Source: Eledone cirrhosa (lineage: Eukaryota). From it: a stretch of DNA of 64,000 nt. The notes under the pieces were generated by a model. It saw only the letters and a list, made by a program, of their open reading frames with translations. It was not told the DNA's origin and ran no database searches. The stretch is from assembly GCA_964016885.1 (NCBI GenBank), contig OZ024740.1, positions 343,232,001-343,296,000 of the forward strand, in the 5' to 3' direction. The translations under genes were made by a program, and so were the position numbers. Below, piece after piece: positions 1,668 through 61,090 of this stretch (position 1 is its first letter; every line of letters starts with the position of its first letter).

Positions 1668-1950
1668 TAATGGTAGCTATGATGCTTCCATAGGCGGTAT
1701 GCCAGTTGAACACTCTATGTTCTTACAGAGCAGAGTGTGATATAACAACAGCCAATAGCAAGACAAGAGAGGAAGATGTTTTTTGAAGCAAACACCCCAG
1801 TGAGAAAATTTGTTCCGAAAGTATTGCATGTGTCCGAAGAACCTGCAGATCTAGAATCAGACAGATCCATACAATGATCATGTCTCGAGCTATCTGCCGG
1901 CGAAACAATTGTAACACACAATAAACTGAGTCCAGATGCATCACTGATTT
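1668..1950 (+). mobile_element. PLE 3'-end-derived insert (inverted tail plus hammerhead segment), related to 40016-40432
   Basis: Reverse complement of ~1670-1745 matches the tail at 40350-40430 (actctgctctgtaagaRcatMgagtgYtcaa..ggcataccgc); flanked by microsatellites. Confidence 0.7.
1829..1918 (+). ncRNA. Type-I hammerhead ribozyme-like motif (U4C core variant)
   Basis: tgtgt-CCGAAGA-stem II (gcagat/atctgc)-GAAA-CAATTG-TA-acaca, then AATAAA at 1920-1925. Confidence 0.7.
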
Positions 1951-1992
1951 TTCGTTTTATATTATATATATATATATATATATATATATATA

Positions 1993-2140
1993 GAAGAGCT
2001 TCTACAGGACTAGAACTGTTTCATTCGTGAGAAATCAACAGTTCTAGTCCTGTAGAAGCTCTTCCATATTAAAACTTTTATACTCTGCTATGTATTACCT
2101 TACTTACTGTGGTTACCTCCGATTCAACCCGGAATAACTT
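1993..2140 (+). mobile_element. Fold-back insert, family A (also 11030-11195, 46414-46600, 49975-50150)
   Basis: 28-bp perfect inverted arms 1993-2020/2037-2064 plus a one-sided tail, flanked by (TA)n. Confidence 0.8.
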
Positions 2141-2167
2141 ATATATATATATATATATATATATATA

Positions 2168-2605
2168 TAAAATAAAATAAATAAGTCAAATATTTACAGT
2201 TTATTACTGCCATATATATTTCGGTGACAGCCATCTTTGGATGTGACCTCTTCAGGCAGTCCGAATTAGTGTGGTAGAGACGGGTACATATGATTCCAGT
2301 TCCTCAGAGAAATAACAACCCAACCAGGAACTGGACATATCGCAGTATTGACGGAGTTAAACACCTCAACAACATGTGTACCCGTCTCTACCACACAAAT
2401 TCGGTCTGCCTGAAGAGATCACAGCCAAAGATGGCTGTCACCGAAATATATATAGCAGTAATAAACGAAGCCAAATTGTAAATATTTGACTTATTTATTT
2501 TATTTTACATTACTCCGGAGTAACCAAACCAACCTGCGCACTTAGTTGAGTGCTCCAATCTGCATACTGAGGTGTCGGTAAACAACCAACATATACTCAA
2601 AATTT
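2168..2605 (+). mobile_element. Fold-back PLE-end insert, family B (arms ~2168-2292 / ~2373-2506, tail 2507-2605)
   Basis: Inverted arms each carrying a hammerhead; (TA)n on both sides; partial copy at 50909-50985. Confidence 0.85.
2406..2458 (+). ncRNA. Type-I hammerhead ribozyme
   Basis: ctgc-CTGAAGA-gatc acagcc/ggctgt cacc-GAAA-TATATA-TA-gcag, then tAATAAA. The antisense copy at 2206-2260 has G at the cleavage position. Confidence 0.8.
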
Positions 2606-2913
2606 ATATATATATATATATATATATGATACATGCGTCTAGACACATATGTAAGTCTATACGTGTATATGTATGCACGTAAGCGGCTAAACTTCTGGAA
2701 TGTTTTGCGCATATTCACAGTTCCATCAAAGGCCTATAGTTTCAATTTTCCCAGTCAGCTTGATTTTCTGGCTTTCTGAAACCGGGTTTTTCATGTCTGT
2801 TGGTGAGGCAGTGAGTTACATAATCCCAGTTATAAATCTGAAGATATATTCCGTATGTATTACCTTCAGATTTCTCATTAATCTGACGCTGAAGTTTTCT
2901 TTTATATTGTATA

Positions 2914-56902: not shown

Positions 56903-57102
56903 GTTTCATATCAAGTTGCAAATCTGGCTTCTATCTCTCTCTCTCTCTCTCTTTCTCTCTCTCTCTCTCTATATATATATATATAAATATAGGGAGAGAG
57001 AGAGAGAGAGAGAGAGAGAGAGAGTGAGAGAGAGAGAGAGAGAGAGAGAGAGAGAGAGAGAGAGAGAGAGAGAGAGAGAGAGAAAGATATATATATATAT
57101 AA

Positions 57103-57236
57103 CTGTTTCTACTTTAGGCACAAGGCCAGCAAATACCCAGTGCATGACTGGTACTTTATTTTATCGACCCCGTAAGGATGAAAGGCAAAGTGAACCTCGG
57201 CGGGATTTGAACTCAGATCGTAAAGGGACGTAACTA
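57103..57236 (-). mobile_element. Main SINE, 5' part missing where the PLE abuts it
   Basis: Reverse-complement match. Confidence 0.88.
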
Positions 57237-57244
57237 ACGGCGAT

Positions 57245-59037
57245 GAATTAGTTTTGCGAGGTTTTTGATATGAAATCGTGTGTCGAAACAAATATTGTTA
57301 TACTTGGGGAGGGTCATATTTGTGTAATATTGCCAGAATTAATAACAGAACACATTCACTGTTTGGTTGGTTTTCGCTTTTCGCTTCTGTGTCTTTTATA
57401 TCGGTAATCTAATTTATTCGGTCCTCAATGTTGCCATTGACTGACCAACGGTCAAAAATAATACAGATACAATATAGACACAAACACATATATATAGTTT
57501 ATCAAAGTTCTTTTGTTGCACATCTGCAACATCGTCAGTGGTGCTATTGTTTCCTCCCGTAACATTGTATTTTCTACGCCATCTTTATTTAGTCTGTTTA
57601 TATATTTATTTATTTGTTTATTTTATTTTGTCTTCTTTGCGCATGCGTTTGCGTGTGTGTATAGTGTTTTGTTTGATGTGTGTTCGTGATTGGGTGACTG
57701 TGTATTGGTTAATGTATTCTATCTTTACTAGTGTGTGTTTATATGTGTTTGTTGTTATTGTGCTTGTGTATGTATTTATTTATTTATTTATTTATCTATT
57801 TATTTATTTATACTTCTCTTAGGTCAGTGCTGTTTGTTTGGGTGTTGTTGTTATTCCATTCATTCTTTCTGTTTAGCCTTGGCCTTCTAAGTTCTATTTC
57901 ACTGGCCTCTCTGATTTACCTATCTGCTGGGTCATTTCTATGTTTAGATATTATTCTAATTTCTATGTTGTCTATGTTACCGTCGTGTTGTTGTCTGGCA
58001 TGTTCGTATAGTACTGAACCGTTTTTTCGTCCTTTTAGTTCCCCCCAGTGTTGGTCTATCCTTTCACCTATGCTACGAGCTGTCTCGCCTATGTATGTTG
58101 TTGTCATGTTTCTGCAAGTACCCTCTGTACATCTTATGCTATAGACTACGTTTCTAGTTTTACAGTTTATCCGGGGGTTTACCTTACATATGATACATTT
58201 CCTATTAGTACAGTGGGTTTTCTTAAAAGGGTAGGTTTTGCTGATCAGGGATTTTATGGTGGTTCCTGGCTTTTCTACCACCTTAATCTTTAAGTGGGTC
58301 TTTCTCATGGCCTTTCTACACTGGTTAGCTAATTTTTCTCCAGGGGTAGCGTCCACAAACATGACACTCTGGTATCTCTGGTTGTCGTACCATGAGGTGG
58401 CTTTCCCTATTTTATGTCTAGCCCTATCTAAGCTATTCCATGATTTTCTCCTGTATAATGGGAAAATTCCTTTCATGTCCAGTTCTATGAGGGTATTATA
58501 CTTCTCCATGGCTCCTTCGTATACTCTGACTCTGTCTCTTTGGTTGTAGCCAGAGAACTGCATGCGGTTGATGAAGTGTTGGATGTGTCTTTCCATTTCT
58601 GTTGGGTCGCACATGCGGGACACATTCTTCATCACTCGTACCAAATCTGCGATCAGAATATTAAACTTAGCACTACTGGACATTGCTGAGATTTTGAGTA
58701 TCAGGTATTTGAAGGCCATGGGTTTAGCATAGTGTGAGTGGAGAATTTGGGTTATCTCGTCTACAGTGTTAATCCAGAGTTCCGTGTCTAATACAGGTAC
58801 TCTATTGTTAGGGTGTTTGGAAGGGTAGTCGATAGTTACAGTTATACTCTGGTGTATGGAATTAGCTATCTGCTGGATGCTTTCTATTGTGCTACGTTCT
58901 AAATCAAACTTGTTAGTACTCTCTAGTGGGGATGTTCTTATAACTATATTGATATCGTCTACGTAACGAGAGTAAATGATGAGTTCTATGGAGCTCTCAT
59001 TAAGGAGATCTTTAAGTCTCCTTTCCCACCATACCAT
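57245..59037 (-). mobile_element. Penelope-like element, 5'-truncated, single orientation
   Basis: RT/GIY-YIG coding plus 3' region near-identical to 12235-14045; decayed hammerhead at 57501-57542 (GAAA to AAAA). Confidence 0.95.
57916..59037 (-). pseudogene. PLE reverse transcriptase (C-terminal half) plus GIY-YIG, with premature stop
   Basis: YSRYVDDI, VPVLD, FSGY, NVVYSIRC, YIGETARS; CAA to TAA after DPADR relative to the 12756 copy. Confidence 0.92.
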
Positions 59038-60691
59038 AAAACTCTCTCTCTCTCTCTCTCTCTCTCTCTCTCTCTCTCTCTCTCTATATATATATATATA
59101 TATATATATATATATATATATATATATATATATATATATATATATATATATAGAGAGAGAGAGAGAGAGAGAGAGAGAGAAAAGAAAAAAAGCATTTTGT
59201 ATTTCAGTACCGAATGAGTAAGCGTCACTGTTGATGAATTAACAATCCTGAAATATATCTATTTGGCGTTTTCTGAATATTACTGAAGTAGCTGTGAAAC
59301 AATCATAGCTTAAAATAAGCTCACAGATATTATGTTTATTATACATAATATGTATAAACATATTGTATATGTCTCCATATACAACTCTATTCTTAATCAC
59401 GCTGTACACACACACACATACACACACACACACACACACACACACACACACACACACACACACACACACACACACACACACACACACACACACACACACA
59501 CACACACACACACAGGCACAGGCACACACATACACACATATACACACACGCACACACAAACAATAAAACCCATTACAATAAGTGTACTTGTATGACGCTT
59601 AAAAGGAAAGAATAAAAGCATCCTATTTAAATACATATTTGATGTTTGTAAGATCACGCCTACAACTCTGGCAGACATTTTAATAATTTTGTTAAAATTA
59701 TCTCTTTGTTAAAATTATCCCTTTATGATAACTTTAAAATATACCTCTTTCTAAATATTTGATAAATTTGTTGATATCAAACAAATTAATTACAGTTTAG
59801 TTTTCCATTACATAAAAAAAAAATTCATTACAACCCAAATTACTTTTGTATATTACCTTCGAAAATATTGTTTCATCTCCAATATTATCTTATTTCAGTA
59901 TATCTTTACCAAATCCACAAATTAGCAACATCAATATTATTGACATTTCCCTCCATAAAATATCAGCTTTTATATTATCATCCAGTAAATTCTTATAACA
60001 ACTTAGCATCCGTTACTTTCCTTTCCAAATTACAACTATATTTTAATAATTTTATTTAATTTTACAATTTTTTAAAATTTATGATGCCATTCTTTTATAT
60101 GCATTGTAATTTCTTTTCTTATAGTTGCTTCTTTACGTTGTTAACTTGATATATTATACACGATGTATTCTTATATATTTTTCTTTCAGTCTATTATGAA
60201 GAAACCACCTGGTGATTTAACCATATAATATTTAACTTCAATCATACAAATAAGTTAATGAATCTTTATAAATTCACCTTTTAGATAATGATATATTCTC
60301 TCTCTCTCTCTCTCTCTCTCTCTCTCTCTCTCTCTCTCTATATATATATATATATATATATATATATATATATGTCTGTCTGTCTATCTGTCTGTCTGTA
60401 TGTCTGTCAGTCTGTCTGTCTATCTATCTATCTATCTATCTATCTATCTATCTATCTATCTATCTATCTATCTATCTATCTATCTATCTATCTATCTATC
60501 TATCTAACGTTATATATACATATATAATTATGTAATACACAACATAAGATAATTGTTTCACGAAGACAGACGAGCTTGACACATACGTCTGCCTTCATTT
60601 CCTTTACCTTTCCTACGGAAATGCTCCAAGATATGTATATATATATATATATATATATATATATATATATATATATATATATATATATATA

Positions 60692-61090
60692 AGTAGAAGG
60701 GATATTTAATTTGTAGGAAATAAAACAAATAAATATAAATGTTTATAACTGATTCAGAGCACTCGACAGTTTTCTGGAGTAAATATTCAATGATATTAAA
60801 TAAATGGAAACTATATTTATAAAACCATATTTATTCAATTATATATATTTCAAGGATAGCAACATTTTGGTACGCTATCATCAGATAAAATCCAAAATGT
60901 TTTATAAATATTTGACGTAACCAAGGATAATATACCTTACAGGGATAACTTGAACCGTTAAGGTATATTATCCTTGATTACGTCAAATATAAAACATTTT
61001 GTATTTTATCTGATGATAGCGTACCAAAATTTATATAATTGAATAAATATGGTTTTATAAATATAGTTTCCATTTATTTAATATCATTGT
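60692..61090 (-). mobile_element. Fold-back insert, family H (arms ~60789-60938 / 60960-61089, tail 60692-60788)
   Basis: Inverted arms, (TA)n flanks; hammerhead-like motif at 60833-60891 (minus): attttat-CTGATGA-tagc/gcta..GAAA-TATATA-TA. Confidence 0.85.

Follow-up and report, generated by a model that had tools for sequence, protein, structure and literature searches.

The window analysed here is a stretch of 64,000 nt from the genome of Eledone cirrhosa (GenBank assembly GCA_964016885.1, contig OZ024740.1, positions 343,232,001 to 343,296,000 of the forward strand). It is dense in (TA)n runs bordering short fold-back inserts, and a small hairpin is shared by many of these inserts. The hairpin belongs to Penelope-like elements (PLEs) of the Hydra clade, where full-length copies contain it twice, in the order hammerhead, site 1, first hairpin (H1), site 2, second hairpin (H2) and start codon, sites 1 and 2 being the places where insert 3′ ends pass into (TA)n.

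Hairpin motif in the window and in the genome

An earlier sequence-only reading of the window had listed the motif as half-sites of the ACTC and GAGT type in the tails of inserts, and when the letters were re-read, all of these half-sites were found at, or a few bases from, the places where it had put them. The variants at 46553 and 50013 were confirmed as changes of single copies (ACAC at 46553, GAGA at 50013), and the instance in the tail of the coding PLE is present with a true span of 37419–37467, slightly past the 37459 noted before. The GCTC/GAGC pairing of that instance had been taken as a compensatory variant; the pair swap is there, but GCTC/GAGC is actually the commoner form, being the lower stem of most families elsewhere. 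Copies absent from the earlier list were detected at 62013–62042 (plus strand) and 47763–47789 (minus strand), together with partial copies at 14088–14238 and 20535–20679. The hairpins of the window are listed below.

1709–1736, minus strand: H1 of the 1707 subfamily of family G, with H2 visible in loci L280–L289
2512–2554, plus strand: H1 of a family related to the decayed Hydra open reading frame (ORF) in locus L139; hammerhead core at 2410–2446
11134–11156, plus strand: H1 of a diverged family-B-like insert
20129–20160, minus strand: motif-like stem in which the bulged upper stem typical of the motif is missing; none of the sampled loci has a complete second copy
31041–31059, minus strand: motif-like stem with no bulge, 11 nt from (TA)n; a complete second copy is likewise lacking from the sampled loci
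37266–37295, plus strand: H1 of a further family; copy L101 continues into an H2-like stem, and no ORF link was found
37419–37467, minus strand: H1 of family F1 (GCTC / TC bulge / GAGC)
40359–40386, plus strand: H1 of the 40358 subfamily of family G, with H2 visible in L285
46553–46574, plus strand: H1 of family B, one base changed
47763–47789, minus strand: H1 of family A, one base changed
49121–49148, plus strand: H1 of family D
50013–50034, minus strand: H1 of family B, one base changed
50682–50708, plus strand: H1 of family A; the fold-back that holds it is very short, with a site-1 arm of ~12 nt at 50650
56573–56599, minus strand: H1 of family A
60758–60780, minus strand: H1 of family C; hammerhead core at 60848–60884; H2 seen in L290–L303
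62013–62042, plus strand: another copy of the motif, GCTC / TT / GAGCGCT, with a (TA)n run following 72 nt downstream

The last of these copies, together with 51335–51375, represents another motif-bearing family in the window.

The pattern ACTC-N3-50-GAGTRC was found, in the polarity first described, in 9 of the 133 non-simple 120-nt flanks lying 5′ of (TA)n in the whole window, with one occurrence in the opposite polarity and a mean of 0.32 (maximum 3) in 100 dinucleotide shuffles. From 600 kb elsewhere in the genome, which the earlier reading had not seen, 35/748 (TA)n flanks contained the same pattern, with nine in the opposite polarity and a shuffle mean of 1.9 (maximum 5). A generalised consensus, which is partly palindromic, matched 29/480 flanks in a further 400 kb, versus 10 in the comparison count. 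Enrichment over a shuffled background, a check named by the sequence-only reading itself, was thus obtained, and a chance origin of the motif was rejected since the flank counts lie far above the shuffles.

Identity of the inserts

The inserts had been regarded as unrelated families, which was not borne out, as they are the 3′ ends of many Hydra-clade PLE families. The tails at 1709, 2512, 11134/46553/50013, 37419, 40359, 49121, 50682/56573 and 60758 lead, in other copies, into Hydra-type ORFs, so a motif common to unrelated elements was rejected, and so was the reading of the fold-backs as miniature inverted-repeat transposable elements, because their arms are PLE 3′ ends. Two features of family F1 in the window are as follows.

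37870–38829, plus strand: C-terminal 319 aa of the F1 PLE ORF, with thumb, CxCx5C linker and GIY-YIG-type endonuclease (EN)
39777–39800, plus strand: stem II and hammerhead-like core of F1, the core being the CAGAAGA variant; in full elements H1 follows 32 nt downstream

The ORF at 37870–38829 has 125 scored relatives among approximately 85,000 first-look candidates in the genome, with a full copy of 713 codons. Families F1, A, E and D contain single frames of 656–800 aa that encode a reverse transcriptase (RT) with a C-terminal GIY-YIG EN. The marks of the Hydra clade were checked on six family proteins, two of them partial: RLRWR/RIRWR and SDKT occur in the F1, A, E and B proteins and RWT in one D copy, the CxCx5C linker is found in 5/5 full C-termini, and the stretch between the GIY and YIG positions has at most one Cys and no CCHH. 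The marks given for the clade in the available parts of PMC8557442 are RW[K/R], DKT, CxCx5C and the absence of CCHH. A hammerhead descriptor matched five of eight references, some with variant cores, the cut site lying 26–58 nt before H1, which agrees with the earlier placing of the motif tens of nucleotides downstream of a hammerhead. Every insert end that was counted joins (TA)n. Judged from their sequences, then, the inserts carry the Hydra-clade hallmarks, namely RW[K/R], DKT, CxCx5C, no CCHH, a hammerhead and a (TA)n target. The predicted model of the F1 protein (mean pLDDT 88) had TERT as its top fold match, which is expected because of PLE membership, and a Pfam scan of six protein fragments from the window gave no matches.

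Variant hammerhead cores were observed in young, high-copy families, with CAGAAGA in F1 and a U3-A8 type in family A (L132/L133). Stem III of the hammerhead in many Hydra-clade elements reads ACTC-N-GAGT (3′ pseudo-long terminal repeats (pLTRs) of L151, L163, L166 and L179, and the portion of PMC8557442 File S2 available), the same four pairs as the lower stem of the H1/H2 hairpin. A third stem, ACTC...GAGTAGT, lies between the hammerhead and H1 in L158, L160, L164, L170, L176, L190 and L192, which belong to one clade among these elements, and no insert end was seen beside it. In L101, at ~2300–2550, a family-G tail is fused directly to a 37266-type element, making a chimera of two families.

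A second hairpin copy in full-length elements

In full-length F1 elements the tail runs on into the 5′ untranslated region (UTR), and a second GCTC/GAGC hairpin is located 3 nt past the place at which (TA)n takes over in tailed copies; tail-less F1 copies turn to (TA)n 2 nt before H1. The prediction derived from F1 was tested blind in other families, with patterns requiring only G/C (non-TA) sequence after the tail end. Family A has GCTC 3 nt behind the tail end, with a 4-bp upper stem, a TA bulge and GAGCACT, family D has a GCTC stem 6 nt behind it, and family B has a GCAC/GTGC variant, also at 6 nt and lacking the upper stem. The blind tail-end patterns gave no match for families G and C; their H2 copies were obtained by patterns that asked for the motif (26 and 154 matches, respectively, with none in reversed-pattern controls), which is weaker evidence than that from the blind families. 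Both hairpins are also found in F2, E (with 1-nt bulges), L139 and L134, and altogether H1 and H2 are both present in ten families of this genome. The spacing between them ranges from 68 to 94 nt, with 138 nt in L134, and H2 lies 35–110 nt ahead of the start codon in most families. Short tandem units of 257 and ~222 nt, which keep H1 and H2, were observed at L099:1500–2014 and in L239; like retrozyme precursors, they reach back from the start of the ORF as far as the region of the hammerhead.

In the copies aligned here, the known PLE ‘tail’ is the interval between H1 and H2, and H2 is never copied. The sequence-only reading had related the stem to the (TA)n junction of the tail, and such a relation does exist, but it runs through H2 beyond the junction and not through the visible stem; the latter, H1, marks the other, tail-less end, and H2 is visible only in full-length elements.

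Insert ends and pairing in fold-backs

The (TA)n-joined 3′ ends of nine families were counted in 1.25 Mb of loci from this genome, partly chosen for these families and with F134 left out, and 247 of the 252 ends lie within −14 to +3 of H1 (121) or H2 (126). A held-out count in 400 kb of fresh DNA, which took in families F134 and G, placed 36/37 ends near a hairpin. In other organisms, 17 of the 21 usable ends are near a hairpin, two of the 17 sharing a flank; among the 71 loci, 36 had no reference, 8 ran on in tandem and 5 reached the contig end. By exact extension, the modes of the ends are −2 to −7 from the stem, with a range of about −13 to +2, and the ends overlap the target by 2–4 bases of TA.

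Independent choice of ends would give approximately 50% of fold-backs pairing site 1 with site 2. Among the fold-backs with both ends typed, 56/57 pair site 1 with site 2, one is 2+2 and none is 1+1, with three more having an untyped end. All 37 in unselected DNA are 1+2, as are 9/9 in the held-out DNA, where one more has an untyped end; overall, 65 of 66 typed fold-backs pair one H1 end with one H2 end. In unselected DNA, 35/47 tailed ends have an inverted site-1 partner, 24 found by pattern and 11 by eye. Among 40 inserts examined, 14 are longer than 700 nt, and in these the longer arm is that of site 1 in seven and that of site 2 in seven; five small inserts with a zero-length arm against diverged references were set aside in this comparison. 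The joints between arms (n = 22) show an overlap of 0–3 nt in 11 cases, of 7 nt in one and 2–13 extra bases in six, with four unresolved. The fold-backs typed in the window are the following.

37381–39846, plus strand: F1 fold-back insertion; inverted left arm of ~510 nt ending at site 2, right arm of ~1950 nt ending at site 1, with 5′-truncated ORF and pLTR
14088–14238, no strand assigned: very small fold-back of F1; the site-2 arm (82 nt) is tail alone and has no sequence in common with the site-1 arm (69 nt); 3-nt overlap at the joint
20535–20679, no strand assigned: very small fold-back of F1 whose arms, of 64 nt (site 1) and 81 nt (site 2), likewise have no sequence in common; 2-nt overlap at the joint
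48837–49204, no strand assigned: fold-back of family D with its site-1 end on the left and its site-2 end on the right; the hammerhead core lies at 49014–49060

Further long inserts, either fold-back or duplicated, stand between (TA)n runs at 14270–14830 and 21650–22020. The intervals 33200–36560, 690–1560 and 2915–3620 hold what we take to be a degenerate helicase ORF of the Helitron type, as well as short elements whose ends are CTAG/CCCGGCGTTG.

Structure and covariation of the hairpin

The earlier reading had described a stem with a variable loop; the stem is real, and it is not a plain one, since it consists of a 4-bp lower stem (RCUC/GAGY), a 2-nt UH bulge on the 3′ side and a covarying upper stem, followed by a 3′ RCU. 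The structure was examined on 61 hairpins collected with a descriptor that held only the lower stem and the 3′ flank; the nearest-stem rule chose the wrong 5′ strand in 4/61 rows, which were kept in the counts. With a 2-nt bulge, the first upper pair is Watson-Crick in 56/61 (C-G 37, T-A 19), and with bulges of 0, 1, 3 and 4 nt in 2, 3, 6 and 11 of 61, respectively. The second and third upper pairs are Watson-Crick in 36/59 and 24/34, the bulge is UU, UA or UC in 58/61, and the bases −8 to −5 are A/T in 49–55 of the 61 hairpins. When partners were permuted, the observed pair counts were never reached in 10,000 tries, the families being related so that independence is overstated.

RNAalifold returned the same fold unprompted from 27 H1 regions, with two-sided changes in 4/7 pairs and a covariation term of −0.41; in alignment A3, row L211 was taken from the wrong strand. 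The T-A/C-G and G-C/A-T switches each recur, by eye, in several branches of an RT tree, which is a quick tree of only the sequences collected in this analysis. Covariation of the stem, which the sequence-only reading had named as a check, is thereby supported.

Conservation in other organisms and a Neptune-like comparison

A metagenome scan yielded 79 Hydra-like loci of 37–45% identity. For 28 families from other organisms with a 5′ end, two hairpins were detected in 24, one in 3 and none in 1; on the antisense strand two hairpins were detected in 2/28, and 200 shuffles gave a maximum of 1. With the same strict pattern, nine clusters of this genome gave 3, 4 and 2 (two, one and none, respectively), a low score that is due to motif variants and one truncated representative. 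The published consensi, read by eye in the portion of the PMC8557442 supplement available, include Hydra-1_Ajap of a sea cucumber, which has both hairpins at its start and opens 2 nt before H1, as well as Hydra-2_Ajap and Hydra-2_Amil (coral), which contain H1; Hydra-1_Crog (copepod) has a GCCC/GGGC form, and Hydra-1_Amil and Hydra-1_Obim are weaker. Three 9-letter forms of the motif occur four times in six Hydra consensi of that supplement, and once each, in coding-like sequence, in its far larger Naiad and Chlamys files, line breaks being able to hide matches in both counts. From these comparisons, the twin hairpin is a feature of Hydra-clade PLEs in several animal phyla.

The window also contains a Neptune-like PLE (57916–59010, with a Cx4CxxC linker), which has at least three (TA)n-joined ends. 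No such hairpin motif was found around the ends of this one Neptune-like family. Sequences of the Neptune-like PLE lie at 12237–14046, 47177–47613 and 57250–59085 and in L268; the element, whose fixed ends number three, contains an insert rich in asparagine and occurs in tandem copies of 4.1 kb.

Discussion

The position of the ends beside two copies of one covarying motif suggests that the bulged hairpin is likely an RNA docking site that places the RT on the AU-rich bases just 5′ of each copy. A further step, which we regard as plausible though somewhat short of probable, is a programmed twin priming, in which a protein dimer would read the two hairpin copies and start two cDNAs on the cut strands of (TA)n. 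In the likely docking reading itself, the endonuclease would nick both strands of a (TA)n run, and two protein copies, probably a dimer, would be bound to H1 and H2 of one RNA, each annealing one nicked (TA)n 3′ end to the AU patch 2–7 nt upstream of its hairpin. Each annealed end would prime one cDNA, and the two cDNAs would be joined at their growing ends through an overlap of 0–3 nt or a few extra bases. The product would be (TA)n-[inverted arm]-[arm]-(TA)n, and just one of its two sides would include the ‘tail’, from site 1 to site 2. As for the template, it would have a 3′ pLTR followed by H1 and H2, which implies a tandem read-through or a circular RNA. The sequence-only reading had proposed a cis-acting stem of RNA or cDNA; the covarying cis-acting stem of PLE tails is supported, and its recognition by the PLE protein during (TA)n priming is plausible, whereas a cDNA stem is unlikely and was rejected, because a cDNA begun at either site never includes the hairpin that follows that site and leaves it uncopied. 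The hairpin would therefore act on the template RNA (or donor).

The same ends could be generated if the hairpins directed, a few bases upstream, either a transcript stop or an RNA cut made by a host nuclease or the PLE protein itself, with the RT starting at ordinary RNA 3′ ends, and the conserved unpaired ACU and the UH bulge could be a nuclease signal. We consider this unlikely, as an RNA that is cut at site 1 no longer has site 2 or H2, so that strict 1+2 pairing would need two different RNAs together; moreover, the offset ranges from 2 to 7 nt and tracks the nearest TA overlap, and the Poseidon protein starts internally on uncut RNA in the experiments accessible in PMC11167929. A self-cleaving form of this explanation, and with it a new ribozyme, was rejected, the motif probably being too small and its upstream bases too variable; Rfam had no relevant match among the 150 listed of 201 window matches, nor in four full elements, the scans giving spurious microRNA-type matches only and missing the hammerheads as well, so that they are insensitive here. 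Somewhat less likely again is recognition of the motif by the GIY-YIG domain in DNA form, whether single-stranded or cruciform, with the domain trimming a longer intermediate beside each hairpin. The available parts of PMC8557442 ascribe the tail to EN-mediated resolution, the Penelope EN of D. virilis needed the tail for recognition (as cited in the portion of PMC11167929 seen), and the wobble bias is weak; yet the ends join the target through a TA overlap, as in priming, loops of 6 to >100 nt argue against a double-stranded site, and the ends of Poseidon in vitro match its RT starts (PMC11167929, same portion).

Functions of the hairpins in packaging, translation or promoter control, with the ends nearby only through the AU-rich flanks, would suit the location of H2 before the start codon and the A/T bases at −8 to −5. 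This is improbable in our view, because the whole region is AT-rich, yet the 247/252 and 36/37 ends fall in two 18-nt windows of references of ~260 nt, and the 1+2 pairing is left unexplained. Least probable of all, and by now largely refuted, is that a single cDNA from site 2 snaps back and is copied by self-priming until H1 stops it. It would also give 1+2 pairs, and self-priming has been proposed for inverted PLE structures (accessible portion of PMC3846280), but the site-1 arm must then be a subset of the site-2 arm, yet it is much longer in 7/14 large inserts; two inserts of the window have arms sharing no sequence, and H1 and H2 have the same polarity, consensus and offset.

Several points weigh against docking and twin priming as proposed here. 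Genomic ends are alike for internal initiation and for a cut of RNA or DNA at the same place, and the kinship of the families inflates the permutation p-values. Single hairpins fold marginally (z −0.6 to −1.6), the proposed fold being the minimum-energy one in 4/11 window instances, and variants occur, with a 1-nt bulge in E, an H2 lacking the upper stem in B and a 3′ TCT in L134. In the upper stem, G-U exceeds C-A by only 7 to 3, a weak support for RNA over DNA. The one 2+2 pair (L141) has ~820 unrelated bases between its arms, and for 12/47 tailed ends in unselected DNA the closest (TA)n run lacks an inverted site-1 partner. Lastly, the Neptune-like PLE, which is motif-free, has fixed ends and two fold-backs that pair different ends (a+b), so that priming at two sites is not dependent on this hairpin; PLEs in general may have paired ends, with the hairpin specific to the Hydra clade.

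The nearest experimental system is the Poseidon PLE of Anolis (PAc), which in vitro nicks and extends both strands and for which a dimer was predicted; its two internal starts bracket the tail, and RNA up to +172 is needed for the starts at +111–118 (PMC11167929, in the parts available, as for the PAc comparisons that follow). These starts fit twin-hairpin priming, because there are two internal starts, both strands are extended and RNA is needed to +172, so PAc resembles the Hydra-clade elements in being a PLE with two adjacent starts that bracket the tail. It differs in that its starts lie in an AC-rich stem-loop, with binding somewhere in the first 172 nt of the ORF and no recognition motif defined, in that no repeated hairpin, cross-phylum conservation or one-of-each rule for genomic inserts is given, and in the tail, which is 30–40 nt inside the ORF in PAc and 57–138 nt in the 5′ UTR in the Hydra-clade elements here. 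By eye, and as a lead only, a CUC/GAG-containing stem is present just 3′ of the distal start of the Poseidon template. The Hydra clade as described in the accessible portion of PMC8557442 includes an octopus family and shares the (TA)n target, the hammerhead, the inverted 5′-truncated copy and the one-end tail.

A small conserved stem with a variable loop is also known from the 3′ tails of stringent long interspersed nuclear elements (LINEs), ZfL2 and UnaL2, where it is bound by the element's own ORF2 protein to begin target-primed reverse transcription (PMC4176376, PMC1636434); that stem-loop occurs only once, is located 5′ of the RT start, and every insert receives a copy of it. The Hydra-clade hairpin, in contrast, is doubled, lies 3′ of its start and is uncopied by its cDNA, H2 being absent from tailed ends. 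In L1 twin priming, two cDNAs from both target strands give an inversion joined by microhomology, the second start being a chance internal match, while here both starts are fixed beside the same motif and the arms may overlap. Telomerase RNA has stems that anchor TERT beside a short alignment region, and a boundary stem that stops copying. The resemblance to our proposal is that a related RT would have its primer register set by a protein-bound stem on a simple-repeat end; the difference is that the proposed hairpins would place the start of copying and not stop it.

The PLE tail, its one-sidedness, hammerheads and internal initiation are already described in the literature. For the motif, its duplication and the 1+2 rule, no description was found in searches of full-text literature, a scope outside which most subscription journals, Repbase reports and figures fall. 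The words ‘hairpin’ and ‘stem-loop’ are absent from the available text of Craig et al. 2021 (PMC8557442), whose consensi hold the hairpins unremarked, and ‘hairpin’ and ‘stem’ are absent from the accessible portions of Arkhipova 2013, a 2026 retrozyme preprint and a 2026 octopus repeat paper. The hairpin is thus a real cis-element, found throughout the clade, that apparently had not been described.

PLEs are the sister group of telomerase, and how they choose their RNA and where copying starts is an open question; the one in vitro PLE study found two internal starts and, in the parts available, no signal (PMC11167929). The one-sided tail and the inverted copies have had three competing explanations (EN resolution, self-priming and internal initiation), and a conserved element that can be mutated, with the counting rule of one H1 end and one H2 end, makes these testable, snap-back having been largely ruled against. 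A large part of this genome's (TA)n-flanked fold-back repeats consists of Hydra-clade elements, and for curators of these elements the hairpins serve as a boundary marker. If the proposal is true, it would provide a portable signal of 20–30 nt for placing an RT start inside any RNA, and three features of PLEs, namely the one-end tail, the fold-back mini-inserts and the inverted 5′ copy, would all follow from a single step.

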